This document shows positions 1 to 64,000 of a stretch of 64,000 bases of DNA, piece by piece (position 1 is the first letter of the stretch; the number at the start of each line of letters is the position of its first letter). The position numbers were made by a program, and so were the translations under genes. The notes under the pieces were generated by a model that worked only from the letters and a program-made list of their open reading frames with translations, ran no database searches and had not been told where the DNA came from. Source of the stretch: a virus (Duplodnaviria > Heunggongvirae > Uroviricota > Caudoviricetes); the IMG/VR virus record IMGVR_UViG_3300028048_000050, positions 83,494 through 147,493 of that record. One strand, 5' to 3'.

Positions 1-1
1 A

Positions 2-307
2 GTAACACCTGAATATTATTTCTAGACTTGTCACCTTAGAAAATGTTATATAAGTATTTGTTAGTAGATATTCGATTAGGTTCATTCTTTGGATTGTAAT
101 AAACCTCCTTTCGACCAAAATTTAACATATAAGAGAGATTTATTGTTAGCTGCTATTAATGTTTTAGAATACATGGCTGAAAGAGATTAGTTTAAAGAAG
201 CAGAACTACTTTTAGAAAGAATTATGGAATGTAATGGACTTTGTAATATTCAATGTAACAAGATTCATAAACATTCTGCTAAACCTTGTAATTGTGGATG
301 CTCATGA
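2..307 (+). CDS. 5'-truncated hypothetical protein, Cys-rich C-terminus (...HSAKPCNCGCS)
   Basis: Frame 2 is open from the window start with TAG read as Gln. It ends TGA 305-307, overlapping the next ATG (ATGA). Confidence 0.75.
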
Positions 308-858
308 ACAGATGTGGTTGTAATCCTGTTCCCGAACCTTTTGAATATACTATAAGAGAAAATTTAGGAAAGAAAATAAGAGGAGATTTTAAGGAATTGT
401 TTCCTATAGAAATCGATCTTGACGAATTAAAGGAAAAATTAATTTGTGAATTTGAGGAAATTCTAGATAAATTAGAGTGTGGATTACATCCAGATTTAGA
501 GTTTCTTTTACAAGATATTTCCTGGATTTATATAAAAGAAAAAATATTTGAAAATAATGCAATATATATTCCTCCTGCCAACTATATCGGATTTGCTGAT
601 GAAAATATAAATGAATTAGATTTAAATTCATTAACAGTCAGATATCAAGAGGATATAAAAATGACGGAGATTATAAAAAACAAAGTATGGGGATACCATT
701 TATGGATAGTTTCTCCATACGCTTTACACAAAGTAGCTACCGATGAAAATTTTACTTTTGAAGTTAAGATGAATCCAGTAGCATACAAAAATGGATTGCA
801 TTATTATAGAAGTAATTCTAAGGTAGATATTTGTAATTTAACTTATTATATTAAATGA
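304..858 (+). CDS. hypothetical protein, 184 aa (MNRCGCNPVPEPF...)
   Basis: ORF track 292..858. ATG at 304 overlaps the upstream TGA, so it is the more likely start. No TAG. Confidence 0.8.
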   Translation: MNRCGCNPVPEPFEYTIRENLGKKIRGDFKELFPIEIDLDELKEKLICEFEEILDKLECGLHPDLEFLLQDISWIYIKEKIFENNAIYIPPANYIGFADENINELDLNSLTVRYQEDIKMTEIIKNKVWGYHLWIVSPYALHKVATDENFTFEVKMNPVAYKNGLHYYRSNSKVDICNLTYYIK

Positions 859-865
859 TACTACT

Positions 866-1545: not shown

Positions 1546-3720
1546 ATGAATAAATTAAATTTTTAGAGTAAGAGCACTGGAGATACTCTTGAAGCTAATG
1601 AATGGAATCAGGTAGTAAGTAAAGTAGACGAATTAGTAGAATCCGTAAATGATATTAATATCAGTGGAGGTGGTTCGGGTTCTGGCTCAGGTTCAGGTGA
1701 CGATTCGGGAAGTGGTTCTGGAAGCGGCTCTGGAAGTGGCTCTGGAAGTGGAGATCAAACACCTATTGATACTTCTGGTACTATATCTGTAAGTGCAAAA
1801 GGTAATGTTACTATAGGAAGTACAAAAAATATAAATTTAGAACCAGCTTGGAGTGAAAATGCTTCAGGATATACTGGTAATTATGGTGATATTGCTTTAA
1901 AATCTGGTGATGATATTCAATTCTGTTCACACCATAGAGAACCAAAGAAACGTGATAAGGTTGTTATCAAAAACATCGACGGTTCTGATAACCCAGTAAA
2001 ATTACAAGTTGTAGCAGGTGAAGTTGATTTAGCTGTAGGTACTAAAAATAATCCTAAGACAGCTACAAGAAAAAAGAACAACACTACAGGTGAAGACATT
2101 AGTAATCAAGCTTTATTTAAAGCTGACGATGCTAAAGTATTAGATGTAAGAATTCTTACTGGTAATGTTCTTCAAGAAGGTACTGCTAATGAAAGAGATG
2201 AAAGAGGTTATTTAAAAGTACGTGCTCAAGCTATTGATCTTCGTTGTGAAAAACATGGTGGTATTGCTTTACAACCTAAAGGTTATGACAATGAAGGTAA
2301 TATGAATAAGATTAAGTTCGAACACGGTGGTGGTGATGGACTTGAATTCGGTACTTTCAATGCTGAAAAGACTTCTATCTTTACAGATGAATATCGTTTC
2401 AAGAAAGACGGTATCTGGAAGATGTCTACTCGTGAAACTGAGGAATCAGGAAAAACTATTATAGATGAAAAAGAAGGTGACCTCGGCACTTTAACTCCAA
2501 CAGGAGCTTATAAGTATAAGAAGAATAATGAAACTAATAATGCTGCTAAAGCTGCTGCTGATTTAAAAACTTATGAACCAGCTGATGATTTCTATGATTT
2601 CATCGATGAAGAAGATGAACAAACTACAACTAAAGCTATTATTAAAACTGCTGCAGCTTTAAATAATGACTTTATTGAAACTTCATTATCTGCTAAGAAG
2701 AACTTAAAGATTTCTGCTATTAGCACTTATAAGATTATAGAATACGAAGGAGTAGCTGCAGGCGATGAACAAATCTTTGTAGTAGAAGATAAAACTAAGA
2801 GCTATACAAAGGATGAATTAAAACTTATTCTTTCTGGTGATGTTAAACTTAGTGAATATATTGATACTAAACTTCCATTCAAGATTGATGGTGATGAAGG
2901 TACATATAGATTAAGTGGTGATATTACTCCTAAAGTTGCTCTTGAAGCTGAAGAAGAAGTAGATATTGATGCTAAGTACGGAGATGTAGTTTTAACTTCT
3001 GGTGATACAATTAAGATGGAAGCTCCTGAAATCCGTCTTAATGCTATAAATGCAGATAAGACTGGTGGTATTGTAAACTTTGGTGCAACCCAAGATGTAA
3101 TGTTTATTAATAGTAAACTTACTAAAGGTCTTAAAGTTGAAGCTTCTGCTAATCCTACTAAGATTAAACAAGTTCTTCAAAATAATACAATAGATACAGT
3201 ATACTGGGATGAAACTAATAGTATCTTCAGAGTTCCTATGAAGAAAGTTTATGCTGATGCTGAACATACTATTGAAATTACTCCAAGTAATTATTCTACT
3301 TATAAAGAGCAACCAGCATACTTTGCAGATGGCTCATTAATTCCTGCTGATTATACTTGCTTCATTGGAGTTACAGAAGAAAATGATGGTACATATACTA
3401 CTAACATCTATAAAGTAAGTACTAAAGGTAGTTCAGCTGTTCTAAGTAAGAACATTAAAGGTCCTGTAGGTCAATATACAAGTAGCACTGAAGGTGTTCT
3501 TGGTTCTAGAGTAGCTTTAGGAACTTCTGATGAACTTACTACATTAGAATTTGAATTCCCAGAATATACTGGTGGAGCTAGTGTATCTGCAGTATTACCT
3601 GAAGAATTTGTAACTGTAGCTGAGGTACAATTATCTGATGTTATAGATATTATATCTGAACTTAAAACAATGAAAACTAATAATCAAGGACCTTGGGCAC
3701 CTGCTGAACCAGGATTATAA
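1546..3720 (+). CDS. putative virion fibre/structural protein with GS-rich linker, 724 aa
   Basis: ATG 1546, a single TAG at codon 7 (1564-1566), then open into ORF 2302..3720. N-terminal 'KSTGDTLEANEWNQVVSKVDEL'. Codon bias typical of highly expressed genes (GGT, GCT, CGT, TTC, AAG). Confidence 0.85.
1669..1752 (+). repeat. Gly-Ser low-complexity linker with 12-nt tandem unit ggaagtggc/ttct
   Basis: Encodes GGGSGSGSGSGDDSGSGSGSGSGSGSGSG. Confidence 0.85.
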
Positions 3721-3766
3721 TTAATAAAGTCCTATGATTAAATAGAAAACTAATAATATCGACGCT

Positions 3767-3970
3767 ATGCGTGTAAACGGCCTTGAAATCTTGGCCGTTT
3801 ATATGCGTGGTCGATTAATTTGGTATCCTACCAAAGATAAAGAAAACGACAATCCTCAAGAGGATGACGACGAAGATGACATTATTTTATCTTGTTTTTA
3901 CAATGGATATTGGATAGACGAATATCCTTGGACAGATGAAACACCTTGGACTGATTTTAGTAAAGAATAA
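3767..3970 (+). CDS. small hypothetical fibre-associated protein, 67 aa
   Basis: ORF track. N-terminal 'ILAVYMRGRLIW', acidic stretch, C-terminal 'GYWIDEYPWTDETPW'. The TAA overlaps the next ATG (TAATG). Confidence 0.75.
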   Translation: MRVNGLEILAVYMRGRLIWYPTKDKENDNPQEDDDEDDIILSCFYNGYWIDEYPWTDETPWTDFSKE

Positions 3971-6900
3971 TGGACACATTTAATAGTTATATAGATGAAT
4001 ATGTTGATTGGGTTACTGGTGAGGACACATCATCATAGGAACAAGAATAGAAATTAAGAGTATCTTCTACAGGAGGTCTTCCAGTATCAGGAAAATATAT
4101 TCGTGAGTTGATACAATCTAAATTAAAGAAACCCTTTGTTTATTACGAAGATGTAAAAGCTGGTCTTTACAGATTATTTAGTAGTGAATCTGCTCGCGAT
4201 AGATGGATTAGAATGAATACCGAAGGTAGCTCTGATTATGATCCTGATGGCTCTGCTAAATTAGAATTATTTAGTTTTGTTAGACCAAGTGATGTTACAA
4301 TGACTTACCAAGGATTAGACCCTAATCCAAAATATGTAGTAAATGGTAATACAACATCAAGTGCTACACAATTACAATTTAATGTTTACTTATCCAAAGA
4401 ATCTGGTGGTGGTACAGTTTATGAAAGTGATTCTTTCACTGTTACTTATAAAATCACTGATTCCTATGGAGTTGAACACGTATCTGTAGAAGAAAAAGAT
4501 TCAACTTTCTTAAATTCAACTAAGAAAGTAACTAAAAATATATACTAGTATCTTACAGTTGGATAGAATACTGTGAATATAGTAATGAAAGCTAGAAACT
4601 CTAGTGCTCAAAATTCTGTTACATTCCCAGTATATTTAATGGACTTTATATTAGAAAGTTCTTTTGATTATTCAGCTCACTGGAACCCAGAACAAACAAT
4701 AACAGTTCCAGTAAGTATTAGAAGAAGTGATACAAGTCTTACTTTAACTGTAGATATATATGTTGATAGAACTTCAAGTTCTCCTGGTGTTCATGCAGGA
4801 ACTTGGACAGTTAATAGTATGGAAAGTAATCCTACTAAAACATTTTATTTAGATAATAATTATGCTGCAAACCAATCTTCAAGCGATCATATAAAACACA
4901 CTCTTACTATTATGGCTAGTCTCCATAATTCTGAAACTGGAGAATATCATTATAGTAATGTTTTATTCTATGATTTTATAGTAGCTTCTGATACTATAGG
5001 TATAGTAAATAAGTTTATTACCACTGGTTATACTCTTCCATATGACCAAATTAATATGGATTCTCAAACTAATAGAGTATATATCACAGGAATCCAATAT
5101 GAACCCATATCTTTAGATTGGGCATATTATACTGATAGAGATACTACAGGACAAAATGTTGATGTATAGTGGGCTATTAGAACTACTTCAAATAACGAAA
5201 CTACTTATACTCCTATAACAACATTAGACGGTTCTAACTATAATAAAGGAGAAACTCTTAAATTTATTCCTGATTTCTAGACTGACACTAATCCTAATAC
5301 GTTCTTAGTAGCTTTAATTGGAGGTCAAGAAGTAGAAGTTTATCCTTTAGATATAGCTACAAGTACTTTATCTATTTCTGAAACTGGTGGTTATAATTTA
5401 AAATTATCTGCTTATGGTAAAACAAATTCTTCACCAGATAAAGATGTTTGGAAAGATAGAACTAATAATATAACTACTACCTTTACAAATATTATATTTG
5501 ACGAAAACTCTGGTTGGAGTAATAATAGTTTTATAACTTCTGGAGAAGGTCAATATATTACAATTAATTATTGTCCTCTTCCAGGTGATTATAATTTAGC
5601 TGGAAAAGGTAAAACTATAGAAGTAGACTTTATGCCTGAAAAGGTATCTAATGATGGTGATACTCTTATAACTATAGGCGATACTAGTAAAGGTTATATT
5701 AAAATTACTACTAACGAAGCAGCAGTATATAGTGGAACAAGTAAAATTGTTCATACTAACTATAAAGCTAATGAAAGAATAAAATTAGCATTTATATTTA
5801 ATCCTGTTACAGCAGGCTCTGTTGATTCTAACTTGGTATTTATAGTAAATAATGGTATATTAGAAAGAGCTGCACAATATGGTACAGCAGCTTCTTATTT
5901 ATCAAGTTATGGAAATATAAAGATTGGAGATAGTGAAAGTGGAGTTAGAGTATATAACATAAGAGGTTATGATAAAGCTTTATCATATGATGAAGCATTA
6001 AGTAATTATACTTATGATAGTGATAATAAAGCTGTTGTAATCAATAGAAATGACATCTTTACTAGTAGTATTATTGACTATACTAAAGTTAAAAATAAAA
6101 TTGATACAGTTGTTATTAGTGGAAATCTTGATGCACTTTTAGCACAAGAAACTCTTAAAGATGATTCTACCACAACTGTAAATATTAAACGTGAATGTAT
6201 TACGGACGCTTCTAAATCATTTGAAGTAATTAACGGAATGATTAGAAAGCATGGTCAGTCTACTCTTAACTATCCTATTACTTCTTTGAAAATATGGCTT
6301 AATAAAGGTAAAGAAGAAGATAATGTTACAACAACATTAACTTTATCAGACGTTCAAAGAGCTGAAGGATTAAATAAGAATAGATATATAATGAAAACTG
6401 GAGCTATACCAGCAAATAAGTTCGTATTACAAGCTAACTATGCTGACTCATCAGGTGTTCATAATGGTGGATTACTTAGACTTATACAAAATACTTGGTA
6501 TAATGCTACTGACGATAGAGGAAGACATATTCTTAGAACTGCTCCTCAATTATTTGCTACAGGAGAAATCTTAGTTCACGATGATGATGAATTACATGAA
6601 GATGGAACTTGGAAAGAAGGAACAGGTGTTGGAGTAGCAACAGGAAAAACTTGGACTGATATTTCTTCAAGACCATTCCCCTATGTTATAAGAAACGCTC
6701 CAGATTCATTCCCTTGTGCAGTATTCTATAAGAATGGTCCAGATGATGGATACCACTTCTTAGGTCAATATGTATTTATGGATGATAAAAAGTCCGATTA
6801 TACTTATGGAGAAAGAAGTATTTATCATTATGGAACTGATAATGATCCTTTTGTATTAAGAACTGAAAATACTAAAAATGGACCTAACGGAAAATAGGAC

Positions 6901-9900
6901 ATAGCAGAAAATTGTGTATGGGATAACGGAGATGTATTACGTATAGAAATAGTACTTCCAAATACTAGGTTAACTAGTTACATGGATTTCAATGTTACTG
7001 ATACTAATAATAGAACTCACGTATGTACAGATATTAAATATGATGAAAAAGGAAATCCAACTCAATATTATTGGGAAGATTACTTTGAAATGATTTATCC
7101 TGATACTGATGATGTTGCTGAGGACGACGCTAAAAAAGGTTTAACTAAATTTAGTCCTACTTCTAAGTTTGTTAAGAAAGCAACTCCATTTATTAATTTC
7201 TTAAAATGGATTACTGATTGTAAAAACAATTATAATAAAACAACCGATTGGTGGCGCGCTGGAACATATGTTTCTACACAAGCTGCTTTTGAAGCTACTG
7301 CACACAAACACTTAGATTTATATAAGGTAGCAGCTTATTATATTTTCTTCTTAAGATTTGGACTTATTGACTCTGTTGAACGTAATGCTCAATTAAAAAC
7401 ATATGATGGACAACACTGGCATTATGAACCTTGGGATATGGATATTGCTCTTGGTAATAACAACCAAGGTAACCTTATCTTTGATCCTCCAATGACTAGA
7501 AATTCTCTAGAACCTGGTACAACTACATACGCTTTCTCAGGTAGAAGTACAACAACATCTAATGTTCTTTGGGATTGTCTGGAAGCTTGGACATATTGGG
7601 CAGAAACAGTAGTTCCTGCTGTAGCTAGAGCATTATATGGTGCTGGATTAAATTATAATAATATTATCAATATGTTTGATAAGGAATATGCTGAAGCTTG
7701 GTCCGAATCAATGTATAATGAGTCTGGTCACTATAAATATATTGAAAATGGTGGTGCTGACTGGTATGCTTGGTTACAAGGTTCTCGTACTTCTCACCGT
7801 CACTGGTGGATATCTACATCAATGAACTATTATGATGCTAAATGGTCTTGTGGTTCATTTAATGAACATAGAATTCGTATATTTGCTGATAAAGCTATTA
7901 ACGAAATAGGAACTGATATTGTAACAATTAAACCTACTACTGATACATTCTTTAAGATTGCTCAACAGGAAGGTAGAACAAGTTTAGGTTTCTTATCTGC
8001 TACAAGATTACAACCTGCTGTATTTGATATTTCTACAGCCGCTTTCTCTGCTAAAGACCCTTCATATATTTATGGTGGTACTTTTATAGAAGAAATTGAT
8101 TTAAGTTGTTTTGCAGAAAAGTTTAAAGCCGCTGACTTATCACTATGTTATGATTCAGTGCTTGGTGCTCCTATTAAGAAACTTAATGTTGGTATTCCTT
8201 ATACAGTTATTTCTGAAACTGAATATGAAGGAAAAGTTTCTGGTACACAATTCCGTTTAACTGGATATGATACTGGTTCTAAACAAGATGCTTTTGCTAA
8301 TCTTCAAGTTTTAGATATAACAGGACAAGGAACTATTACTAATACTCAAGAATTATTAGAAACAAGAAATAGAAAGAGTCTTACCGATTTATATGCTATT
8401 GGTAGTGGTATTACTCAATTTATGAGTTCTACTTCTGGTAATAAGTTTAATACACTTAAATTACCTGGTAAAACTACAACTACTTATACTAATCAACCAT
8501 CTACAATTGTAACATTTAATACTCTTACAATGCACAACAGTTCTTGGAATACTATAGAATTCTGGGATACAGTAAAATCTGGTGAAGTTCAATATGTAAG
8601 AGATCACGATGGTGAAATAGTATTAGATGATGATAATCTTCCAATCCTTGTACCTAATGTATCCACATTTACTAAGTCTATAATTCCAGCTGAATTAACT
8701 ACAGTTCAATATACTGGTAGTACAGCTAGAAATGAATGTGCAGGACAATTCTTATTAGATTGGATTGATTCTATTGATGCTAGTTTACCTGTTGGACATA
8801 CTGAAGAAGATTTATATGCAGCTTTACATAATAAAGTATTTGAAGCAGAAAATGTAAACTGGGGTGTTCCAGGACAAACATTAACTATTTCATATAATGA
8901 TTTAGCTAGAATTGCTCAATTCAATGAAGGAAATAATTCTGGTGGTAAGATAAAAGGTTATGTAATGCTTTCTGACCAAAATGAGTTAACTTCAGTTCAA
9001 GTAAGTAATATTATTCAATGGTTTGGTCCACAAGCTTTCTCTAAGAACGCTAGAAATAGCTCCTTAGTAGTTGACCAAAATTTAACTTATGTTAGATTAA
9101 CTAGCTTTGGAACTACTATTATAGATAACGAAATTTGTCTTGAAGAAGGTAATACAGCTCAAATATTAGCTACTAAATTCTTATTATCTGAAGACTCTCA
9201 ATTAGACTATGAATGGTCTGTTGCAGTAGGACAAAATCAAGATAGTTATGGAGTACATAACGTAAACTCAGTAACATTAAGAACTGGTGATGATGGTATT
9301 CCTTACATAGTAGCTGAAAAGAATGGTACTTATGGAGATTATTATATTACTGTAACAGCTACACATGCTGGAATTAATTATAAGATAACCATTAAAATTA
9401 TAGGAGGTATTCTTCCTGAAGATATTCAGATTAATACTTATACAGTAAGTGGAAGTGATTGTAGAAGATTTTATGTGTGTCAAGAAATGGCTAATGCTTC
9501 AGCAATGTTTAGAAATTCTGTATATGACGAAAATAATAATAATGTTTTAAGAGACGGATTTGTATTACAAGAAGCCAATCAATAGATAGAATTTTATCCA
9601 ACCACAATTGATGGTTCTACACCTTCTAATATTACAATGTCTTTAGCTAGATACCAATTAACTGATATTATTACTACTTATACAGCTCATACAGCTTTAC
9701 AAGGAGAAGATGATACATTAGAAAATAGAGTTGGTGATGATTATATTTATTACACTAAATCTGCTACTCATAAAGGAATAGTTATTGGTGTAACACAAGC
9801 TCCAAATAGTCCTAGACTATATACATTAAAAATAAATGTAGTAGTAGGAGGAAAACAATTTACAAGAAACATTAATTTATTGGTTTATAATGATGCACAA

Positions 9901-10518
9901 GTAATGCATACATAGAATACCTCTATCGGTGTTCAAAACGTATTAAACGCTAATCATACTCTTTTATATGGTAATGCTATTAATCAATATTATAAATCCG
10001 ATTTATTAAGTCTTGCTGGAGCATTAGATTTCTCTGCTGAATACTAGTCTATAGGTACTATATTAACTAATAATGGAGATAGATTATTACAATATATACA
10101 AAATGTATCAGAATTAAACTTCAATAGTTGTTCTTCATTAGATCAAAGCTCTTTAGGAGTAATTACTTCAGGAGTAATTAGTGTAGTATCATTACCTACT
10201 TTAACAACATTAAAGTTAAATGGAGCTCCTATTACAAATGTATTAGATTTAACTAATTGTCCTAATATTGAAACACTAGATACTAGAAATAGTAGTGCTG
10301 GTATAATATTAGCTACAAGTAGTCCTATTACTAGTATATAGTTAGGTTCTCCTTCTAAAGTAGATATTAGAAATCCTAAGTATTTAGTTAAAAATAATGT
10401 AACTATTTAGAGTAGTGTAAATATAACTGATATATCTTTAATAAATGTTAATATTGGAGATGTTTCTACACCTGCTTCAGTACAGGGATTTGGAATATTT
10501 AATATTTTATATTCATGA
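3970..10518 (+). CDS. giant virion-associated protein with CotH-kinase-like domain and C-terminal LRRs, 2182 aa
   Basis: Five ORF-track fragments in the same frame, joined by about 11 TAG codons. TGA at 10516-10518. Motifs 'GLIDSVERN...WHYEPWDMDIALG' (CotH-like) and 'LTTLKLNGAPITNVLDLTNCPNIETLDTRNS' (LRR). Confidence 0.85.
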
Positions 10519-11876
10519 CAAATTTAACTATTGAACAAAGTACATCAGCTGTAGAAAATGTTAATGCAGCTGTAATAGAGAAGTTATATGCACTTGCTTT
10601 AAATAGTAATGTGCAAGATTCAAACAATATATTTTAGATGTAGCTATAGGGAAACATTACTGTTCCTGCTGCTTATGAAGATTCAGTATTATATTTAAGA
10701 TAGAAATTTCCTAATCTGACTATAACTGTTTAGGATAATAATTTTTATATAAGATTTGCTGATTCTGAAGTAGAAAGAGTTTTAATTGCTAATAATATAA
10801 GTTCCGATGGAGTAGGAGTTAGTAAAACAGACGCACAATCATTAAATACTCTTCCATTGAGGTTATTTAAAGATAATACTACAATATAGACATTTGATGA
10901 ATTAGGTCGATTTGGAAATATAGAAATAGATGGAGAATGTTTTAAACAAGCTACAAATTTGCGAAGTATAGATCTTACAAATGTTACTAGAATAAAAGGA
11001 TAGTGGAGTTTTTCAAAAACTTCTTCATTAACAATTAAATTAAATATGCCTAATTTAATTTCTTTAGGGGATTTTTCTTTTGAATATTCAGGAATTACAG
11101 AAATCGAGGATTTAGGACATATTACAGAGATTCCAGGATATAATGCTGCTTCCTTTCATAGCTGTACAAATTTAACAAAAGTAGTACTTCCCACTTCTTG
11201 TACTAAATTGGGAATAAATTGTTTTTCACGATGTATAAATTTAACAACTATTTATCCAACTGATAATCTTACTACTTTAGAACATTGTTGTTTAAGAACT
11301 TAGGGTGTAATATCTAGTATATTAAATTTTAAAAATGTAGTAAATATAGGTTATATATTTTGTTCTAGTGGATATCCAACAGGGGAAAATAGAACTATAT
11401 GTAAACAAATATATTTACCTAAAGTAGTTGATCCTACGGATAAAAATGGATATATAAATATGAGTAATAAATATTATCGTGGAGGATTATTTGGAGACAT
11501 ATCTACAGAAATATTATATCTTAGAGATATTCAACATTTTTATGGACCGAGTTTTCATAATAGTCAAATAACAAATTTAGTTATAAATAATATAACTCCT
11601 CCTACTATTCATTACACTCAAGACTATACTTATTAGGAATATTTAGATTGGAAGGCTAGTAAGGGTGGAAATTATACTGGAGCACCTGAAGATGTGTTTG
11701 TAGAATCTTCTATTACTAATATATATGTTCCAGATTCAGCAGTAAATACTTATAAAAATGCACAATATTGGTCAAGTGTTTCTAGTAAAATATATCCTTT
11801 AAGTTAGTTAGCGAAAGTTGCAACAGAAGCAGATCTTCAATCAGGATAGATAGCATTAATAGAAGAATATATGTGA
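10515..11876 (+). CDS. BspA-type leucine-rich-repeat (LRR_5) protein, 453 aa
   Basis: ATGA overlap with the upstream gene. 'YIRFADSEVERV...TFDELGRF', 'FHSCTNLTKVVLPTSCTKLGINCFSRCINLTTI' and 'IYVPDSAVNTYKNAQYWS' repeats. Includes ORF 11046..11303. Confidence 0.85.
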
Positions 11877-11941: not shown

Positions 11942-13210
11942 ATGGATGAATTAAACTCTTTACGCAAAAAGAATGGAGAAACTCTTGATTGTAACGAATG
12001 GAATAAATTAGTTTCAGTCATAAATTATATTATAGAGTTTTATAATTAGTATCCTACAAAGTTATCAGAATTTGAGAATGATATTGTTGGTTAGTTTATT
12101 GGTCCAACTGGTCCAAAAGGGGATAAAGGTGATAAAGGAGATACTGGTCCACAAGGTCCTGCTGGATTAGATGGTACAGTAGCATTTGATGAACTAACTA
12201 GTGAATAGAGAGCAAGTCTTAAAGGTGAATAGGGTGAACAAGGTGTTCAAGGAGAAACTGGAGAATAGGGTCCAGCTGGTGCAGATGGTAATAACGGTAA
12301 ATCAGCATATGAATTAGCTGTAGAAAATGGTTTTGATGGAACTGTAGAACAATGGTTACAATCTTTAGTTGGAGCTATTGGTAAATCAGCATATGAATTA
12401 TATGTTGATAATACTTCTGATGATCCAGTATTAACATTGGAACAATGGTTAGCGTCATTACATGGCACTAATGGTATTAATGGACAAGATGGAACAGACG
12501 GTGTAACTCCTCATATTAACAATTCTACTAAACACTGGATGATTGGAGACGTTGATACAGGAATTGTAGCAGAAGGACAAGATGGATCTAATGGTACAAA
12601 CGGACAAGATGGTGTAACACCTCACATAGATTAGACTACAGGAAACTGGTTCGTAGGTTCTACTGATACAGGAGTTCAAGCTTAGGGTCCTGCTGGTAAT
12701 GATGGTTCTAATGGAACTAATGGTAACGATGGTGTTACTCCTCACATAGATTCTACTTCTAAACACTGGATTATAGGTTCTACAGATACTAATATAGTTG
12801 CTGAAGGTTAGAACGGTAATGATGGAGTAACTCCACATATAGACTCTGTTACAGGTAATTGGTTTATAGGATCTACAGACACTGGAATTCATGCTCAAGG
12901 ACCTGCAGGTCAAGACGGTGATGTAGCAGGACAAATACAAGCAGATTGGAATCAAACTGATAATACTCAAGTAAGTTTTATAAGAAATAAACCAACTATT
13001 CCTGCAGCACAGGTACAATCTGATTGGAATGAGTCTGACAATAGTTCATCAGCATATATTGCTAATAAACCTACACTATTTTCTGGTTCATATAATGATT
13101 TAAGTAATAAACCAACAATTCCAATTATATGGTCAGGTACTTAGGCTCAATATGATGCTATTACAACCCCAGATCCTAATACTATTTACATAATAACTTC
13201 TGCGTCATGA
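11942..13210 (+). CDS. collagen-like tail fibre protein, 422 aa
   Basis: Gly-X-Y triplets (GPTGPKGDKGDKGDTGPQG; GEQGEQGVQGETGEQGPAG with TAG=Q), 2x GKSAYE, 4x 'DGVTPHI....K/GNW.IG..DTG', and a C-terminal 'QSDWNE...NKPT...WSGTQAQYDAITTPDPNTIYII'. Confidence 0.9.
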
Positions 13211-15129: not shown

Positions 15130-15147
15130 TTTATAGGAGGATTGAAT

Positions 15148-16162: not shown

Positions 16163-16164
16163 TA

Positions 16165-42920: not shown

Positions 42921-42922
42921 TT

Positions 42923-52500: not shown

Positions 52501-53112
52501 AGAATATATCAAGCAGAATTACCTATAGACAAAGAAGCAAAAGCTCAAGGTATTATAAAACCTGATTTGAAATTCTTAAAGAATATAGAAATAGCTGATG
52601 AAAAATTAAGACAAATGGGAATAGATAAATCTGATCCTAAAAATATTCCTACTATTAATAAAGTTTACCAAGAAAATGGTTTACCAGTATTATACACTAT
52701 TTCAGATAATAAACCTGTAATAACTTCCGAATATGCTAGATTTGCTATAGTAAATGGTGTAGGTACTGAAGAAGCTTTTGGAGAAAATCCAGAATTTAAT
52801 GATGGTGTTAGAGAGATTACTGGAGAAAAAGAAAGACAGTAGTTTGAAACTTTAATGCAACAACAATCAGGAAATTCTAAATATAAATTAGATAATGGTA
52901 TTGGAATTGGTGTTCTAGGTTTAACTTTTGGTGAAACCAAATTATATCAAGGAACAGTATATATTCCAATGGTAACAAGTAACATTTCTGCATTAGCTGG
53001 AACAGGATATAAAGCTAAGGGAAGTGAATATAATGAGATAGAAGCTTTACAGCAAGCTGCAGATGCTGCAAGATAGAAAGGATTTAAACCTGCAGGAAAT
53101 ACTTTAAAATAA
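49594..53112 (+). CDS. large cargo-like internal virion protein, 1172 aa
   Basis: ORFs 50596, 51505, 51817, 52447 and 52855 are in one frame. Internal 'SAKEGTKI' and 'KKFQYGG'. TAA 53110-53112. Confidence 0.8.
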
Positions 53113-53119: not shown

Positions 53120-56100
53120 ATGCCTAAATAGAATGATTTAATTTTAACTCTTCTAGCAAATCCTCAGTTCACTACTGAGGATTTCTAGGAAGTTGGACTC
53201 TCCGCAAATAATACATCCTTAGAAGATGAAAATACTTATATAAATTCTAAAACAATAACAGAAAATCCTCTATTTCAAAAAGAGAGCGGAGAGTTTGATG
53301 AAGATAAATTTCACTCAGTGTATATTGGAGCAAGTAAGATGTTTTAGGATTTAAGTGATACAACATAGAATCCTAAAACTGTATATAGTAAATATAATAT
53401 TTGGGCTCCTTTGGCACAAAGAGATATGACTCCCCAATTTGAATTAGTAAAAAGTCCTAATCCTGATAGAATTACTAAAAGTATGATTGTGTTTGGAAGA
53501 AATGGAGAAAGAGAAAAAACTCCATAGGAAATTGCACAATCATAGTAGGTATTTAATAGTAAAACAGGTGAATGGATGGATTCTCCAGAAGATTTATTTT
53601 CTTTTAAGAAATTATTTAATGATCCAATAGGATTTTTCTCTGATAATTTTGGAAATAATAAAGTATTAGCACAATATGATGAAGATGTTGATGTTAATGG
53701 TAATAAAAGGGGAAGTATAAATTTTAATGAAAATTTAATTGAGCATAGAAAAGGAGAATATATGCTCAATGAAAATGGAACATATTATTATAGAACATTA
53801 AAGGATGGAGAAAATATTTATGGAAAACAACTTCTTCATTACTCTGATATATTAACTAGAGAAGGTTCTGCATTAAACTCTATTGATTTCTTAGATAGTG
53901 ATGATATAGAAAAGAGTACTTTTGGAACATTTGTAAAAGATGCTTCCTTAATTGGAGCTATGTTTATTCCAGGAGGAATAGGTACAGCTATTGCTGGTGC
54001 TACTATATTTCAACAAGCTGCCGGATTAGGAGCTACCTTAGGAAAAATAGCTTTACAGGATAGTAGTAATTCTACATTAAATTGGTTAGAGGGATTATCA
54101 GAATCTACAAATCCATTAGGAACTAGATCTGAATATTCTTCTGGAGATAAAATGTGGACTACAGAAAATCTTTTAGGAATGGTTGCTGATGTTATAGGAC
54201 AATTATATCAACAAAGATTAATATTTAAATGGGCTCCTGCAATAACTAAAGGAAAATGGGGCCTTTCTGAAGAATCTCAAGCAGCTTTAAAAGAAAAATA
54301 CATGGCTGAAATAGCATCAAAGAATAAATCTTCATTAGATGCTATAATAGCTAAATATGGTTCACAATCTCCACAAGCCGTAAAAGCTTCTCAAGAATTA
54401 TTAGCTAAAAATCAATTAGAAGCAGCAGCTTTAGTAGAAGATTTTATGAAAGATTATTACAAATCTGGAGAACAACTTTCTAAAGCTTATATGACTATTC
54501 TTACTGTTAATGATATATATAGTGAAGCTAAAGAAGCTGGTGCCTCAGATTTTGATGCTTCTGTTATTACAGCGGGTTATGCTGCAATGGAATATGCCCT
54601 TTTAAGTACCGATATAGGTAAATGGGTTCTTCCAGAACTTAGAGGCGATAGACTTTAGAATAAAGCTATAGTAAGAGCTTTAACTAAAGATACTTTAGAA
54701 ACATTTAAAAAATTAGGAGCAGAAGCTACTAATAGTGAAGCAGCTAAAAGAACTTATTTATAGAGGTTAGTAGATTTTGGTAAAAATGTTGCTAGAGGAG
54801 AATTTAATGCAGGTCTTGGTAAAAGAGCCGCTTTTGAAGCTGATTCTGGATTACTAAAAGCTGGAGCTGGCTCTATATTTGCTGGAGCATCAGCAGAAGC
54901 TATTGAAGAAACCTCTGAAGAAGTATTAGCAGACTTTTCTAGAGTACTTTTTAATGGTTTAGAAAAACTAAAGGGAAACGATGATATAAGAATGAAGAAA
55001 CCTTGGGAAGATGAACATTTATTTGATAGATATGCAATGTCTTTCTTAGGTGGATTTATCGGTGGTGGTATATCTTCAGCAGCTTTTGATTTTAGTAGTG
55101 CTAGAAGATCTCTTAATATGGATTATAACAAAGCTGTCTAGGAAATTATATGGAAAGCCAGAAATAATGACTTAGATGGTATATATAAAATATTAAATAA
55201 CGAAGAAATAGGTAATAAAAATCTTTCTGCTACAAAATTTGTTGAAGATGAAAATGGTTAGAAGATTTGGAAACAAGGCACTGAAAAAGATAACCAAGAT
55301 ATAGCCATAAAAAACATAGTAAAAAGACAAATTAAATTATTACAAGATACATTAGAAGCTCATGGGGGTAATATGTCCGATGAACGTCTTATAGATTAGA
55401 ATGTATTAAAAGATATAAGATTTAGAGCTTTACAAAATTCCACTACAGCTGGAATATATATTCAAAAATATAACCAAGCATTAGGAAAATTAATAGAAAA
55501 AACTAATGAATTAAAATCTCTTGATACTCCTTTAGAAAAAGCAGAAAATGGTACAACAGATAAAAAAGAAAGAGAAACAGGAGAATCAGAAGAAACTAAA
55601 AAGAGAAGACAAAAGTTAGAAAAAGAAATAAAGGAACTTGATGAATAGATTGAAAACTTTACTTCAGGTAAACTTGCTCCTTTATTTATGACTTCCGCTC
55701 TTTTAGAATCAACTCCTTTTATCTCTGAAGTATTTATGCGTGCTAGTTTTAAAACTTTTGCAGAAGATAAGGCTAAAACTAAGTTTGAAAATATTTCTGA
55801 AGGAGAATTAAAGAATTATTGGGATTAGTATTAGACATATCTTAGAACATCTAAAAAGGATGATTTAGATTTTGCCACTGAAGGATATTTATCTCTTTAG
55901 AAAATAATTAAACAAAACTTTGAAGAAGCTAAAAGAATTGCTGAAGAATCTGTAAATAACGATCAATTAAAATAGTTATTAAAAGAACAAACATTATCTA
56001 CTACAATCTTAAATATGACTGAGTTAGATGACGATACTTGGCAAGAAACTTTTTAGAAATTCATAAATGATAATCCATTAACGGAAAAATTTGTTACAGA

Positions 56101-59100
56101 AATTTAGCTTATTAGAAATACTGTAAAAGAAGCTAAATAGAATGCTGATAAAAAATTTGAAGAAGATAAAGCTCTTTATGATCAAAAATTAGCTAATGGA
56201 GAAATAGAAGAAAGTGTTTACTAGAGTTATATAACAGGATTAAATACAGTTAGGGATGATGCTTATACTCAAGCCAATGAAGGTTTAAACAATGCTCTAT
56301 CTGATATTAATTTTGATATGTTAGTAGAACAAGCTAATTAGCTTGCTGATAATTTTATTAATTTAGGTTTCATTAATGGAGCAATTAAAGATACTGTTGT
56401 AAATAGATTACAGGAAAGTATTGATAGACTTTAGGAACATTTAAGAGAATTAGAAGAACTACTAAATGCTGTTGACACAGATAAACAAGATGAAGTAATT
56501 GAGAAACAAAATAGACTAAATTCTCAAATTATTGAATTGAAAGAAAAATTAGAATAGATTAAAAATTTAAAATATACACCTATTTTATAGAATTTAGATT
56601 AGTTTGCTCTTAATTTAAAATCTTATTCAGTATCTCAATTATTAGAAGAATTAGGAAATGCTATTCAAACTAATAAAACTAACATTGGCTAGTTTACATT
56701 TGGGGAGGATATTCATCATGCAATAAACGAAGCTGATAGAGTAATTGATTTATATATAGCAGCTTTAGAAGGTGCTAGGACTGATACAGTTGATCCTTTT
56801 AAAATTAATACTACTACAGGTAAAACTGAAGAAAATCTTTGGGGAATAAATAAAGTACTTAATGAAGTACATGCAAAGGCTCCTAAAATTGATGGAGATA
56901 CTTGGGAAGATTTACCTGAAATAGATGGAAACACTGCTAATATGATGTTAATGGATGCTCGTTCTATCAAATCCTTATTATAGTCGTATAAAAAATTATT
57001 CGATATAAATAGAGGACAAAAACTTGAAATACAATCAAGAGTAGGAGCTAGAACAAGTTATTTATTATATAATAAAATTTAGAGATTATCTAGATTATTA
57101 ACAAATCCTGATTTTCCTGAAGTAGATAAGGATGGAAAAACATATGAAGGAATTGCTGAATTTCAAGAAGCTATTGATAATTTACAATTCTTTAATGAAA
57201 ATGTTAAAGGTAAAAATAAAGAAGATTGGAATATAAATTTATCTTTGGAGGAACAAATTGCTCTAGAAAAAGATAGATTAACTATGGAAACAGCTATATT
57301 CGAATTCTTTAATAAAAATACTGATAGAGATTGGACTCCTTTATTCAGCACAATATTTTTTAATTTAGGAGACACAAGAACTACATTATTAACAGAAGCT
57401 GCTGAAGATATAGATGAATCTTCTTTAATTGGATATTTAATATCTAAAATAGCTATAAACTCTTCTGATTTTTATTCTAAGTTTAAAGATATGTTAAAAT
57501 CAGGAGATAAGAAAATAGCTCCTTTATTAGGTTAGGAAATAGGTGTTTAGTTACATTTAGGTAATGTCTTAAATGGAAACGCTGTGACTAAAGCTATTTA
57601 GGCTTATAGATAGTCATTATATAATCATGTTAAAGGGTTAAGTTTAGAAGAAAGACATAAATATTTATTAAAAGCAGGTATTAATTCTTACGCAATTTCT
57701 ACTGATTATGGATTTAATAAATATTTCTCTTCGTTAGATATAATGCCTCAATATTCTAATATAACATTTACAGATGGTGTGGCTGGAAGTGGTAAAACTA
57801 CAGCAATAATGGCTACTGTAAATAAATTTTTATAGACATACTATCCAGGAAAATTTAATAAAGTATGGACTATTCATGGAGGAGATCCTGATACAGAAAC
57901 AACATTTTCTGAAGGTTTAAGAAAAGCTGTTGGATTAGCTGAAGATGGAACTGCTACTTTTAATAAAAAGACCTTCATGGATCAACTTACTGATGATAGA
58001 AAATTAACTAATGATGGTAATGTTTATCAATTTGAAGAAAATACTGACTATAAAGTAATTAATGGAAGATTAGTTCCAACATGGAAATTAAAATCTTATT
58101 CTAAAGAAGAACTTCCTGATATTATCATTATTGATGAGGCTCAATAGCTAACTTAGCTTGAATTATTAACTATTGATAAATTTGCTAGAGAAAATGGAAT
58201 TCCAGTTATAATGTCAGGAGATTTATAGCAATCTTAGATGACTGGAGAAATTAAAATATCTAATGAGGATATTACAGCAATAAACAAAGAATTAGCTGAA
58301 AAAGGAATAAAAGATTCTTCAGGAAATGTAATAAAATTTGATAAAACTTTTCCTTTAAATTTACATTTGTCTAGAAACTAGGTTATACATACTCCTAAAA
58401 TAGGAACAAGTATGAGAACTGAAAATAACTAGAAAAATATGAATATGGCTGCAGTGGAAGCTGCAATAGACATTGTTTAGGAAGCCAAAAAATCTGGAGA
58501 AGTTCCAAACGCTTAGATTGATTTACATTATTATATTGATGATAATAATATAGCTGGAGACTATTGGGCAACAGAAAATGAAGATATAACTTCTCTATTG
58601 GATAAAATGATTGCTAATTTAGGAGAAGGAGAAAAAATTAACTTTGCTTATTCTTCAGAAAATTCTGAAATCTATAAAACATTAAAAGCAAATTCTAAAT
58701 ATTGGGATAGAATAAATCCAATTAAAGGAACTGCTCTAGGATAGGAAGGTAATTATTGGATATTAGACATAAAACATAAACAATTAAATGCTAATGGAGA
58801 AGAAGTAGATGTTCCTACAGAAACTTATTTACAAGATTTATATACAGGTATAACTAGAGCTAAAAAAGCTAGTATTTTAATTGGACCAAAATCTCCAGTA
58901 TAGGGTATTAATCTAAATATTATTCAGGATTCTGAAACGCATCCTGAAAAGTACTCTGAAAAAGCTGTAGAGAAATTTACTGATAAGAGAATTAAAATAT
59001 TAGAAGGAGCCTTAGAAGGAATAGATACAAAAGACATTCCTAATATTTCTAGAAATGTTCCTCCATCTAGTCCAACACCTTCAGTAGAGCCTACACCAGA

Positions 59101-62100
59101 AGTTCCTCCAACAGGACCAACTTCTCCAGTAGAACCTGCTCCAGTAAATCCTGTTCCTCCAACACCTTCACCAGTTTCTCCAAGTTCTGGACCAAGTCCA
59201 AAACCAACTGTTGAAAAATCTAAGAAAGATTCTTTCTTAAAAGGAATAAATAAATCTCTATCTAATCAACATATAGTAGCTGTATTAAAAGCTGCTACTG
59301 AAGCTAATATTGCTGGAGAATTAACTGATGATGAATTTAATGAAATTAATAAAGTAGCTGAGCAAAAATTACAAAAACTTAATAAAAGAAGTGACGAAGA
59401 AAAAGTAATTTAGGAAGGTATAGCTGCTGTGGGAGAAGGTTTAGCAGAAGTTTCTGAGGAATTTACTAAACATAGAGCTGAAGACTTATTAAAGTTTCCT
59501 AGTGTTGAAAAAGAATTTAAAGAAATTTACGGAGTTGGAGTAAATTCTATTGAAGAGGCTGTACAAAGAGCTATTAATGATATTATAGAATAGTTTAATA
59601 CTTTAGAATCTCCAACAGAAAAAAATATAAAATTTAAGGACGATATTATAAGATTACTTAAAAAGTCTTTAGAATATGATTCAACTAGAGCTATATTAGA
59701 AAGTTATATAACTCCTAAATCTGAAACTAATCCTGAAGAAGAAATTCCTCCGGTTGTAGAAGAAATTGAACCAGAGGATATAGAAGAAGAATCAGAATCA
59801 AACGAAAAAGAAACTAAAGCTAAATTATCTGATGAAAATAGAGAAACCAATTCTGCTACATTTGATAAAGTAGAAATAAGTGGATTTAGTAAAAAAGATT
59901 TTAATTTCTTCTTATTTAGTAATGCTACATTTGAACTAGGAACAAATCTAATTAACGATGATGGAACATTTAATCCTAGTTCTGTTTCTTAGAGAATAGA
60001 TTCACTAAATGGTATTGTTAAAATATTTGGAATAAATAATTTACAAGAGGGTATTAATTTATTAGCACAAGCTAGAAATATTTTAATGTCTGTTAAAAAT
60101 AAATCAGACATGGAAAGACAGCTTGGAACACTATTTAATAGAAAATTAAGACAATTAGGTAAAGCTAATTTAGGTAATTTGTTTGTTAGATTTGCTATTA
60201 AAACTTCTGAACCTAACGTATTAAATAGTAAATACGATAAAGCTTAGAAAAACTATTATAATGAATCAGTACCATATGCTAGATGTTAGGTAGATCCACG
60301 GTCAGAATCTAATTATGCCAATAATAGAAATCTTGTAGCAATAATTGGAGATACTGAAGATAGATTGGAGATTCCTTTATTACAGCTTAATAATCCTATT
60401 ACTATTATATTATAGAAAGCTTCTGGACAATATAAATATCCTCAAATAGCATATGCATATAATAATGCTTATACACGATCATATAATTATGCTGCAGGAT
60501 AGACTAATGCTGCTGGATAGCCTATTATAAATGATATGGAAGGTTATGCTCAAATAGAAGCTTTAAAAACTATAGTAAATACATTTACTTAGGATGATTA
60601 TAAAGGATTAACTAATTTAATTAAAGTATATTTAGACACTAATAGAAAAATTTCATTTATTAGAGATTAGTAGTGGACTATAGCTAAAAATCTACATAAT
60701 TTTGGTCCTCAATTAAATTTACAAAGAGGATAGAAAGATAATTATGATAATGTAGATTACATACAAGAAGATAGATGGATTTCATTAAGTGAGTTAAGAC
60801 AAGATCCTCAATTAAAAATAACTGGAGTTTATCATTATACTGATAAATCAGGAGAATTTGAGGATGAAGCTGGAAATCCTGTTAAAATTGTAACTAAACC
60901 TAAACATCCGTTTGTATTATATACTGACGCTTTTTATGCTCATGATGGAGTAACCGAATTAAATTCTGATGATAATATTATTAATGAATTTATGTATCAA
61001 AAACTTCATCCTGAAGTTGAATAGACAATTAAATTAGTATATGTATTACCTCCTACATTTACAATAGGAGAATATGTTGAAAGTTTAATAGGATTTATGG
61101 TTAGAGGAAGTAAAAAAGGCGTACTAGGAAATCAGAGAACTCCTTTAAAGGTATTGGAAGGTTTAATTTATGATGCTGAAGGTAATGTAAATTCTGAATT
61201 AATTCCCGTATTCTAGAATGCTTTTGGACAAGACAATGGAATATAGGTTTATAATAAAGTTAAAGAAACTATAGATCAATTAAAAGATTTAAGTTTTGAA
61301 GAGCAAATAAAGAAATTAACTAACGATACTCCACAAGCTTGGAATATTAATGGTGTAGGATTAAATGCTAACGTGCAATTATATCAACAATTATAGAATA
61401 TTATTAAGCAATTAGTTCAACCTAGTGGTGTAACAGTATGGGGAACAGTTAATCATAAAGGTTCTTCTGATATTAAAGATTCTCAACTATAGTTACTTTC
61501 ACAAATATTTGAGAAAAGTGGTTTATCTTTATTCTATCAAACAAAGGGTAGTAAAGATGCTAGTTTAATAAAATATGGACGTTTTTCTCCTATACAAGAA
61601 TCTGAAGACGGTGTTACAATAAATAATGATTATTTAACCACTGATAGAGAATATAAAGTTAATGGTAACTTATCTACATCTACTTTTATGGCAGATGAAG
61701 AGTTTAATAATATAATTGAAGGAATGTTAAAAGGTTATCGTTCAGGAGGTTCAACTACTCCAACTACTGATGGATTCGCTTATTTTAATGATAATTATAG
61801 TGGATTTAATACAAAACAACAACAATAGCAACAAAATCCAGTATAGCAACAACCATCTATACATCCTGATATTCTTGATAAGTTAACTAAAGCTGGAGTA
61901 GCTAGTATTCTTTATAGTTCTTCTGATATAAGACCTACTATTGTAAATGATAATTCTATAGAATTAAAAAATCAAATTGCTAATAGTATTAATAGTTATA
62001 AACTATCTTTTAGAGCGTTAGTTCTTCCTAATGGAGAATTAATTATAGGTAAAAATGATTTCTTTAAAGATAAAGATGTTCAATTTAATTTAGGAAATAA

Positions 62101-62530
62101 TCCATTTGAAAGTGGACAAAATTATTAGTTTGATGCTATAATTGATGGAGAAGAATATGATGTTGTTTATAGTGAAACTAATAACGGAAAAATAATGGAA
62201 TTAACTCCTAAATAGAATCAGAATGAACAAATTAATAGTTACTCAGAAGTTGATCCAAATAATTTAAATATAGATAGAGCTAAAGAATTTTTAACTTAGT
62301 TATCTAATTCTTCAGAATCTTTAAAAGATCTTATAAATCCAATATTATTAGGAAATCCAGATACTTTGGTTGAAGAGACATTAGAACTTTTAAATTCAGA
62401 TTTCTTTAAAATGATTTTAGAAGAAGAAAATTTGGATATTTCTTAGTTTAATGATATTTTAACTTTTGAATAGATGCCTAATTAGAATTAGGATATGTGT
62501 AATTTATCAATTAAAATTAATTTTGTATGA
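53120..62530 (+). CDS. giant internal protein with SF1 helicase-like domain, 3136 aa
   Basis: N-terminus 'MPKQNDLILTLLANPQFTTEDFQEVGL'. Walker A GVAGSGKTT (57776), DEAQ (58133), GDLQQ (58217), YTGITRAK (58841), and a Pro-rich linker near 59060-59215. TGA 62528-62530. Confidence 0.8.
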
Positions 62531-64000
62531 GTATAAAATGTACCTTTACACCAACGAAATTTAAATAGGAAGTACTAAAAAAGGTACTTCCTATTTTTAA
62601 AAATCGTCTTAATATGTCAGATAAAGACGTTAGAGATAGTTTATATAATACATTTAAAGATATTTCTGAATAGTTAGGAATTACTGGAATTAGTAAAGTA
62701 GACGAATCATTAGAAATCATAAAAAAAGAAGTTGCTAAATTTTTTAAAAGCGAGCAATGGTTAGATGATAATGATATTAGAGCTGCTTTAACTTAGTGGA
62801 AACACACTCCAATACCTGAAGACAATACAGCTGATCATTTATTAAAAGATAATGAAAAGCTTGAAAGGGTTAATGAAGATCCTTTTGAAACGTATTATTA
62901 GTTTGCTATGAACGCTAAAATTAGGGCTAAATAGTAGGCTAATAAAGTTGGTATACGCTCTATACTCTACAATGAACAAGGAATTATAAATTCTACTAAT
63001 ACATTAAATGAATCTATAAGAAGTAGACAAGAAGAATTATTAAAGGATGTAATAGATTATTTAAAAAGTAGAATACCAGAGGAAAGACAAAATGAACATC
63101 CTGAAATATTTTCTGAAGGAAGAATGTATATTGATAATAAATATACTGGAATTGTAGAAAAAATATAGGAATACTACGGAAGTATTTTAGGTAGCTAGAA
63201 TTTTGATCCAAGAATACTAAATAAATATTATAATGATGAAAATTATAAAGTATTAGACGCTTATAATTCTTGGATAATTCTAAATTATTTTGATACCATT
63301 CTTCAACAAATTTTTGGAAAAGCTATAAGTATAAATCCCGATTTATCTAAATATTCTACTAAAAATAAATATGCTATAGCTGGAGGAAGTAATGTATATG
63401 CAACTTGGAGAACCTCTGAAGAAATAGATATGGGAAAAGAAATAAATAATATAACTTAGGCTATAGTAACCTCTATTCCTTTTATTCCTTATGGTTCTAC
63501 AACACCTTCTCAAAACAATATAAAATTTAATGAATTTTTATATATCATAAGTAAAATAAAAAATCTAATACAAACAGCCAATAATGATTGGACTATTACA
63601 TTTGGAACAAATACAACATTCTCAGAAGATTTTGTAGAAAAATATAATGGAAAATCATTTTTAGAGCTAATAAGTTCTATAAGAACAAATCCTTAGGAAA
63701 TTTTACCTGATATATTTAAATTATTAAATAATGACAATGTTATAAGTGCATTAATAAGTGCTAATGTAATAGAAAGTAATACTTTTTTAAATGTTGATAA
63801 AAGTTTAATTAATTCATTATATGAAGGATTATTTAATGAAGATAATCCTAATAGTTTGTTATCAATATAGAATAAATCTGGATTTGATAATATAAATTAT
63901 TTTGCATTTGTAGCACAAACCATTGATTCAGCGTTCCAATCATCATATTTACAATATTTTAGAAATCAACAAGGTGAAATATTTATTAGAAATATGTATG
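62527..64000 (+). CDS. 3'-truncated giant protein, possibly the virion RNA polymerase-associated polyprotein
   Basis: ATGA overlap and frame 1 open to the window end with TAG=Gln. The product is inferred only from synteny with crAss-like late regions. No catalytic motif lies inside the window. Confidence 0.55.

Follow-up and report, generated by a model that had tools for sequence, protein, structure and literature searches.

Probable decoding of TAG as glutamine in the late gene block of a crAss-like phage from the bovine gut

We analyzed a 64,000-nucleotide stretch of DNA (the window, numbered from 1 to 64,000) that comprises bases 83494–147493 of one 179,115-bp virus record, IMGVR_UViG_3300028048_000050, and whose genes are broken by in-frame TAG codons. 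The window very probably represents the late block of a crAss-like bovine-gut phage in which UAG is decoded as glutamine (Gln, Q). As judged by comparison with related loci, TAG acts here as a third Gln codon, exchanged with CAA and CAG at synonymous-like rates.

Because the window contains Pfam matches to Crass_capsid, to crAss_MUZ and crAss_MUZ_C, and to CrAss_Ring_1, and because genes for TerL and the portal (recognized by PHROG family matches, with 3 and 17 TAGs, respectively) lie just upstream of it, we identify it, at the level of sequence, as the block of late structural (virion) and cargo genes in a crAss-like (Crassvirales-type) phage with a 179-kb genome. The window sequence was found again in bovine gut metagenomes from about 17 studies. 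The whole record has 30% GC and a CheckV completeness of 99%. ARAGORN called 33 transfer RNAs (tRNAs) in it, at least three NUMOD1 or GIY-YIG endonuclease genes are present, and matches to its major capsid protein (MCP) are split in several relatives; the phage may belong to the large-genome crAss-like family. When searched by tblastn against GenBank, the MCP matched only two unannotated phage records, at 55–60% identity, and a phmmer search of the muzzle protein against PDB sequences returned no match. The genome ends form a 251-bp terminal direct repeat with one mismatch (1–251 versus 178865–179115), despite the labelling of the record as linear without end repeats.

Reading frames of the window with TAG as a sense codon

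We measured coverage as the share of the window lying in stop-to-stop open reading frames (ORFs) of at least 100 amino acids. Coverage was 53% under the standard code (translation table 11) and 97% when TAG was read as sense (table 15), compared with 58% when TGA was read as sense; reading TAA as sense gave 85%, but this coverage was made of 187 overlapping ORFs on both strands. With TAG read as Q, 40 tightly packed plus-strand genes tile 97.2% of the window, and their 20,731 codons include 334 in-frame TAGs and not a single in-frame TAA or TGA. Of the 39 genes with a complete 3′ end, 27 terminate in TAA and 12 in TGA; ATGA start/stop overlaps account for 7 of these TGA stops. An earlier note on this DNA, made from its letters and ORFs alone, had claimed that the frames break at TAG and resume in the same frame and that every reconstructed gene ends in TAA or TGA, and both claims agree with these counts. 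Some larger gaps hold plus-strand ORFs of 69–78 amino acids (3734–3970, 15947–16162, 18685–18894 and 46127–46360); because these four ORFs occupy most of the larger gaps, coding density is probably close to 99%.

Within the window genes, TAG accounts for 1.6% of all codons and 33.7% of Gln-type codons. It interrupts 36 of the 40 genes, which hold 94% of the coding bases, so that translation begun at the true starts and halted at the first TAG would yield only 11.6% of protein length. At the same time, 47% of the window lies outside any table-11 ORF of at least 100 amino acids. The estimate in the earlier note that about 80% of the window is hidden from standard annotation therefore depends on the measure. 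TAG codons lie inside Pfam domain spans, those noted being Crass_capsid neighbours, crAss_MUZ, CrAss_Ring_1, LRR_5, Collagen, NUMOD1, SLT and DUF192.

Recoding of TGA was considered and rejected: the small gain in coverage with TGA as sense at genome positions 25–70 kb falls in a stretch of short genes and tRNAs, and in the ATGA overlaps TGA still functions as a stop. Joints with short sides (20–30 nt) that emerged from read mapping of metagenome contigs were disregarded.

The amino acid specified by TAG

To ask which residue TAG specifies, we masked TAG as X in the 40 window proteins and aligned them by tblastn to 61 related IMG/VR loci, counting a TAG site as informative when three or more residues aligned to it (144 sites) and weighting the residue profile by site. 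The residues aligned to TAG sites were most often Q (24%), followed by K (10%) and E (8%), a profile of the same shape as that of genuine Gln sites in the same comparison (Q 37%, E 9%, K 7%). The log-likelihood at TAG sites was –375.8 for Q, –453.3 for E and –463.9 for K, which put Q ahead by at least 77 log units, and Q was the best residue in all 2000 bootstraps over sites and all 2000 over genes.

Codon exchange pointed to the same residue. In high-scoring segment pairs of 65–85% identity between the window and its relatives, CAA codons of the window were replaced by TAG in 72 of 601 cases (and by CAG in 60), and CAG codons by TAG in 25 of 101, compared with only 16 of 1393 for AAA and 8 of 1423 for GAA. 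Because CAA is two substitutions away from TAG, the exchange between them points to selection rather than mutational proximity.

The relatives at about 61–68% capsid identity fell into two groups, one with a late region that is fully open under table 11 (13 loci: L004–L007, L009, L011–L016, L021 and L023) and one with a late region that needs TAG as sense (L003, L008, L010 and L017–L019). This split indicates that the code switches at short evolutionary distance within the clade. When only the 13 standard-code relatives were considered, which covered 58 TAG sites, Q was again the best residue, by 16 log units over E and K.

The portal protein of the same genome, with its 17 TAGs, was compared with 1.8 billion representative proteins. 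Across 107 full-length homologues (23–52% identity), Q made up 27% of residues at TAG columns and 24% at the portal's own CAA/CAG columns, and TAG columns 154, 638, 639 and 711 were 60–79% Q. Because the closest full-length homologue had itself been predicted with TAG as Q, we verified five distant homologues as table-11 translations. In these five, TAG columns held Q at 21%, E at 18% and K at 13%, much as true Gln columns did (Q 22%, E 16%), and column 711 was Q in all five.

The four motifs that the earlier note had quoted as conserved Gln positions are all present, each with TAG at the stated Q. In the collagen-like gene (11942–13210), GE(q)GEQG and GE(q)GPAG place TAG and CAA/CAG at the same repeat position in adjacent triplets, and the others read IL(q)YDL (28462–29217), RG(q)YFSWG (17463–18401) and GG(q)YID (13207–13920). 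Conservation is where this claim fell short, in that the NUMOD1, lectin-like and SLT-region sites are not strongly conserved Gln columns. We therefore dropped the SLT, NUMOD1 and lectin-like motifs as a test of conserved Gln, and the good evidence for Gln is codon exchange with relatives rather than the quoted motifs.

ARAGORN and Rfam found no RNA genes within the window, and all 33 tRNAs of the genome lie outside it. Two of them carry the anticodon CUA. The main tRNA(CUA), at genome positions 72400–72489, lies 11 kb upstream of the window, at the front of the late block and on the same (plus) strand as the late genes, and scores 58.8 bits against the Rfam tRNA model. Its D-arm, U1-A72 pair and A73 also occur in the tRNA-Gln(UUG) of the phage. 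In a 194-kb relative whose MCP is 63% identical, this tRNA is conserved at 93% identity, with compensatory flips at the acceptor-stem pairs 2-71 and 7-66 and no change elsewhere, extra arm included; a homologous, short-armed tRNA(CUA) of 75 nt lies inside the late blocks of seven relatives. The second CUA-anticodon tRNA (genome 54896–54973, minus strand), which sits amid the tRNAs of the early strand, scores 38.3 bits and has two A-A mismatches in its anticodon stem. Searches of the whole genome with the Pfam families RF-1, PCRF and tRNA-synt_1c, which represent release factors and glutaminyl-tRNA synthetase (GlnRS), gave no match, whereas control genomes were matched. Thus, of the decoding genes that the earlier note had proposed to look for beyond the window, the tRNA(CUA) was found, and release-factor and GlnRS genes were not.

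The genome also has a well-formed tRNA with anticodon UCA (34217–34290, minus strand; 61 bits against the Rfam tRNA model), in which C33 replaces the usual U33. It is present although TGA is a working stop in 12 window genes, and BLAST did not find it in five relatives.

Several observations weigh against Gln. TAG sites are less conserved than Gln sites, with Q at 13 of 30 TAG sites in conserved columns compared with 60 of 73 tabulated Gln sites, and counting TAG as Q gives late proteins a Gln content of 4.9%, compared with 3.0% for early proteins. The main tRNA(CUA) is 90 nt long, with the discriminator A73 and a long class-II-like extra arm whose 20-nt variable region folds as a 3-bp stem with the 7-nt loop CUCUGAA. 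(A single base separates this loop from the tRNA's own anticodon loop, CUCUAAA; taken as an anticodon loop, it would present CUG, an anticodon for Gln.) Its anticodon arm differs from that of the phage tRNA-Lys(CUU) only at position 36, and by whole-sequence similarity to the phage's other tRNAs it ranks closest to those for Lys, Leu and Arg, by small margins, without singling out tRNA-Gln. Given the extra arm, the Lys-like anticodon arm and the lack of a tRNA-Gln match by whole sequence, the tRNA alone does not settle the amino acid and might be charged in part with another residue; we did not use tRNA identity for the assignment.

These tRNA features, together with the ranking of E and K behind Q at TAG sites, are what would favor a sense codon for another amino acid (Lys or Glu, or else Leu, Ser or Tyr in view of the class-II-like arm) or mixed decoding. 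But E and K likewise rank second and third at genuine CAA/CAG sites, L and S each make up about 5% or less of the cells at TAG sites, and in close relatives TAG swaps with CAA and CAG, not with AAA, GAA, TTA or TCA. Relatives also carry the short-armed homologue of the same tRNA. With Q ahead in 4000 of 4000 bootstraps as well, we regard another amino acid as quite unlikely. The proposal of the earlier note that TAG means Gln is thus supported by the related-locus profiles, by codon exchange, by the portal homologues and by the conserved phage tRNA(CUA).

Extent of recoding and a possible timing gate

Across the rest of the genome, TAG was distributed very unevenly. About 97 minus-strand early ORFs (1–70 kb and 163.5–179 kb), including those for NrdD, family-A DNA polymerase (PolA) and an SPFH protein, are essentially free of in-frame TAG and stop at TAA or TGA, apart from at most about four that might end in TAG. 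The plus-strand block at 71–162.5 kb has 464 TAGs in 53 ORFs. Off-frame TAG was equally common in the two sets (2.7% in early genes, 3.1% in late genes). Apart from homing-endonuclease genes and a few small ones, only the late block on the plus strand uses TAG as a sense codon, with the recoded genes forming one contiguous same-strand block. The description of the reassignment as genome-wide in the earlier note therefore holds in one respect, in that TAG is almost never a stop anywhere, and fails in another, in that its sense use does not extend to the early ORFs.

The three homing-endonuclease-like genes of the NUMOD1, GIY-YIG and T5orf172 types have 5–9 TAGs each, and two of them are on the early strand: a TAG-rich GIY-YIG and NUMOD1 gene at genome positions 45740–46375 (minus strand) and a TAG-rich T5orf172/MUG113 and NUMOD1 gene at 162582–163316 (minus strand). 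One of these two sits in an otherwise TAG-free tRNA region. Two further TAG-rich minus-strand ORFs (genome 72707–73414 and 35057–35794) had no family match. In the early block, a 100-codon minus-strand ORF at genome positions 15798–16100 has five in-frame TAGs amid dozens of TAG-free neighbours.

In the scenario that we favor, in which UAG is decoded as Gln late in infection, early genes would be translated under the standard code of the host, as published work on such phages suggests. The phage tRNA(CUA) would then be made and presumably charged by the GlnRS of the host, given that genes for GlnRS and release factors are missing from the phage genome; charging by the host enzyme accords with the discussion in the Borges et al. 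preprint (bioRxiv 10.1101/2021.08.26.457843). This tRNA would outcompete the host release factor 1 (RF1) at UAG, and full-length late proteins and homing endonucleases would appear only after it takes over UAG, such that recoding would serve as a timing gate.

No switch during infection would be needed if the host itself read TAG as an amino acid and the phage mirrored the host code. A phage with neither a release factor nor GlnRS would be compatible with such a host. However, a phage of a host that reads TAG as sense would have no reason to avoid TAG in about 97 early ORFs, and this phage has its own conserved tRNA(CUA). Moreover, the same genes follow the standard code in close relatives from this clade, and recoded phages infect standard-code hosts (bioRxiv 10.1101/2021.08.26.457843). 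Mirroring of the host code is accordingly a highly unlikely explanation.

We also examined window positions 21000–40999 in contigs from three metatranscriptome libraries of the bovine gut, which represent two samples and two studies; these contigs showed essentially no differences from the window. They covered 74 of the 103 in-frame TAGs in this region. All 74 were retained, T-to-C differences were absent, and the nine variants listed in these contigs all lay away from TAG codons. The retention of TAG argues against U-to-C editing, with the proviso that the libraries may contain DNA. The idea that the TAGs are true stops, whether in fragmented pseudogenes, through assembly errors or with U-to-C editing of the mRNA, has nothing in its favor beyond the table-11 reading itself and can be given next to no credence, considering the lack of in-frame TAA or TGA, the preservation of the same frames in dozens of relatives with TAG at partly different sites, the identical recurrence of the sequence in DNA runs of many studies, and the TAGs kept in RNA-library contigs.

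Contig depth over the capsid operon (22372–27697) was 44–60, compared with 5–10 elsewhere, in RNA libraries X3 and X4, and X5 showed a similar contrast; the three RNA libraries exceeded their neighbours by about 3–6 fold over this operon, whereas a DNA run was flat at 72–92. Although contig depth is a weak measure, this pattern hints at real transcription and at strong expression of the capsid operon, whose genes are the poorest in TAG. None of the 17 Gln codons of the MCP is TAG (binomial p = 0.0013), nor is any of the 15 in the 408-amino-acid protein at 26443–27669 (p = 0.004), and only 12 of the 79 Gln-type codons in the 2182-amino-acid protein are TAG (p = 0.0003). TAG was also enriched at the beginnings of genes: the first 50 codons contain 51 TAGs compared with 30.1 expected (p = 1.4e-4, with four window sizes tried and kinship ignored), whereas CAA and CAG were not enriched there (53 versus 59 expected), and at least one TAG falls within the first 50 codons in 28 of the 38 complete genes. 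The absence of TAG from the capsid gene and this front-loading fit a translational gate, without proving it. More tentatively, and with more doubt than conviction, we suggest that the gate might be graded rather than a plain on/off switch, with TAG kept out of the most abundant proteins of the capsid operon and the supply of tRNA(CUA) setting both the timing and the stoichiometry of virion proteins, and that the tRNA(UCA) may be a first step to a second reassignment.

Gene content of the window and its relation to known recoded phages

All of the genes in the window are on the plus strand. It opens with the 3′ part of a late gene (2–307; whole gene at genome 83168–83800) that has five in-frame TAGs within the window and a TGA stop, followed by genes for proteins of 188 amino acids (292–858; no TAG, stop TGA), 224 amino acids (866–1540; 3 TAGs, stop TAA) and 724 amino acids (1546–3720; 1 TAG, stop TAA), the last of which is kept in 16 related IMG/VR loci. 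The gene for the 2182-amino-acid protein (3970–10518), in which TAG makes up 15% of Gln-type codons, stops at a TGA in an ATGA overlap with the gene for a 453-amino-acid BspA-type leucine-rich-repeat protein (10515–11876; 11 TAGs; Pfam LRR_5, E = 4.8e-18). The collagen-like gene encodes a 422-amino-acid tail fibre with a phage tail tip domain (9 TAGs; Pfam Collagen and Phage_tail_C), and the gene with the GGqYID motif encodes 237 amino acids and has 3 TAGs. Next are a 324-amino-acid gene (14155–15129; 5 TAGs), two small genes of 114 and 154 amino acids (15142–15950; 1 and 3 TAGs), and genes for a DUF7841 protein of 133 amino acids and a protein of 131 amino acids (16159–16952; 1 TAG each), with an ATGA overlap between them. 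A TAG-free gene of 126 amino acids (17098–17478) precedes the gene with the RGqYFSWG motif, which encodes 312 amino acids with a weak Lcl_C / Fib_succ_major-like C-terminus and has 6 TAGs, and a gene for a 94-amino-acid HTH_17 protein (18404–18688; 3 TAGs). By tblastn, the 944-amino-acid fibre-like protein (18896–21730; 12 TAGs) was distantly matched by tail-fibre genes from Bacteroides and uncultured gut phages.

A 342-amino-acid gene (21832–22860; 4 TAGs) is followed by that of the 475-amino-acid MCP (22873–24300; Pfam Crass_capsid, E = 6e-15) and by genes of 315 and 349 amino acids (24391–26415; 2 and 6 TAGs). The 408-amino-acid protein had no family match. Beyond it lies a 241-amino-acid gene (27737–28462) in which four of the 8 TAGs align to invariant Gln in standard-code relatives, then the NUMOD1-type homing-endonuclease-like gene that contains the ILqYDL motif (251 amino acids; 6 TAGs; Pfam NUMOD1, E = 2.3e-11), and then the genes for crAss tail ring protein 1 (29207–29914; 235 amino acids, 4 TAGs; Pfam CrAss_Ring_1), for proteins of 149 and 188 amino acids (29916–30932; 5 and 6 TAGs) and for a protein of 1110 amino acids (30934–34266; 20 TAGs). 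The crAss muzzle protein has 1696 amino acids (34263–39353; 23 TAGs; Pfam crAss_MUZ, E = 5e-30). Four genes of 504, 284, 405 and 619 amino acids come next (39356–44782; 13, 4, 13 and 9 TAGs); a search for related IMG/VR loci with the gene at 42923–44782 found none.

The remainder of the window encodes a 200-amino-acid DUF192 protein (44800–45402; 2 TAGs), a 242-amino-acid protein with an SLT lytic transglycosylase domain (45406–46134; Pfam SLT), in which 8 of 13 Gln-type codons are TAG, a 107-amino-acid protein (46464–46787; 2 TAGs), two large proteins of 910 and 1172 amino acids (46865–53112; 22 and 20 TAGs), a giant protein of 3136 amino acids with a P-loop (AAA_30) segment (53120–62530; 70 TAGs), and the 5′ part of a 3353-amino-acid gene (62527–63999; whole gene at genome 146020–156081), which has 11 of its 66 TAGs in the window.

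In some relatives (L031, L032, L033, L034 and L036), the match to the capsid gene is split or stretched. In L034, 266 capsid residues are spread over 1480 bases, and elsewhere only residues 15–181 or 182–475 match. This suggests introns or inteins in the capsid gene of those relatives; the capsid gene is intact in the window.

The supE-type tRNA-Gln(CUA) of E. coli inserts Gln at UAG in competition with RF1. The phage system would be similar in having a CUA-anticodon tRNA, presumably charged by GlnRS, that places Gln at UAG against RF1, but here the phage itself provides the suppressor, on which the decoding of hundreds of codons depends, and the tRNA differs by its A73, its variable 2-71 and 3-70 pairs and its extra arm.

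Late-gene recoding of TAG to Gln ('genetic code 15') has already been published for crAss-like phages (Yutin et al. 2021, PMC7886860; Borges et al., bioRxiv 10.1101/2021.08.26.457843; Peters et al. 2022, PMC9523058), and in two of them metaproteomics has confirmed Gln at TAG (PMC9523058). In published recoded phages, the standard code is retained for replication genes, and recoding can affect a homing endonuclease that lies within an early gene (bioRxiv 10.1101/2021.08.26.457843). The pattern here matches what has been published, as the earlier note had anticipated in describing TAG-to-Gln recoding as known in some crAss-like gut phages: TAG is mostly in the late block, the early and replication genes can be read under the standard code, homing endonucleases are recoded, the phage has a tRNA(CUA) without a GlnRS of its own, and the code switches between close relatives. 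The differences are that this phage is from the bovine rather than the human gut, that its capsid is distant from those of named crAss phages, that its suppressor tRNA has a long extra arm, and that it has a tRNA(UCA) despite using TGA as a stop. The large-genome crAss-like family has genomes of 145–192 kb with many tRNAs, dense introns, inteins and homing endonucleases, and recoding of TAG or TGA, and its Zeta group has been noted for the density of its introns and inteins (PMC7886860); with many tRNAs, the 179-kb genome fits within this range. Lak megaphages and TAG-recoded clades such as Agate and Garnet (Borges et al.) likewise use TAG for Gln, with suppressor tRNAs and recoded late or lysis genes. 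Some of them, however, encode release factor 2, and several have scattered recoded modules, in contrast to the single block found here in a genome where no release factor was detected.

Recoding, its bias to late genes, a phage-borne suppressor and recoded endonucleases have thus all been described for crAss-like phages, and this case is real but ordinary, leaving knowledge of the mechanism unchanged. For annotation, its import is practical. Because table 11 breaks 36 of the 40 genes, including those for portal-proximal tail, muzzle and cargo proteins, pipelines that do not test for code 15 misread the phage. For the biology of the group, the phage extends the set of crAss-like phages known to recode TAG to Gln by a lineage from the bovine gut, and its standard-code sister genomes, at about 63% capsid identity, could help in studying the origin of code switches.

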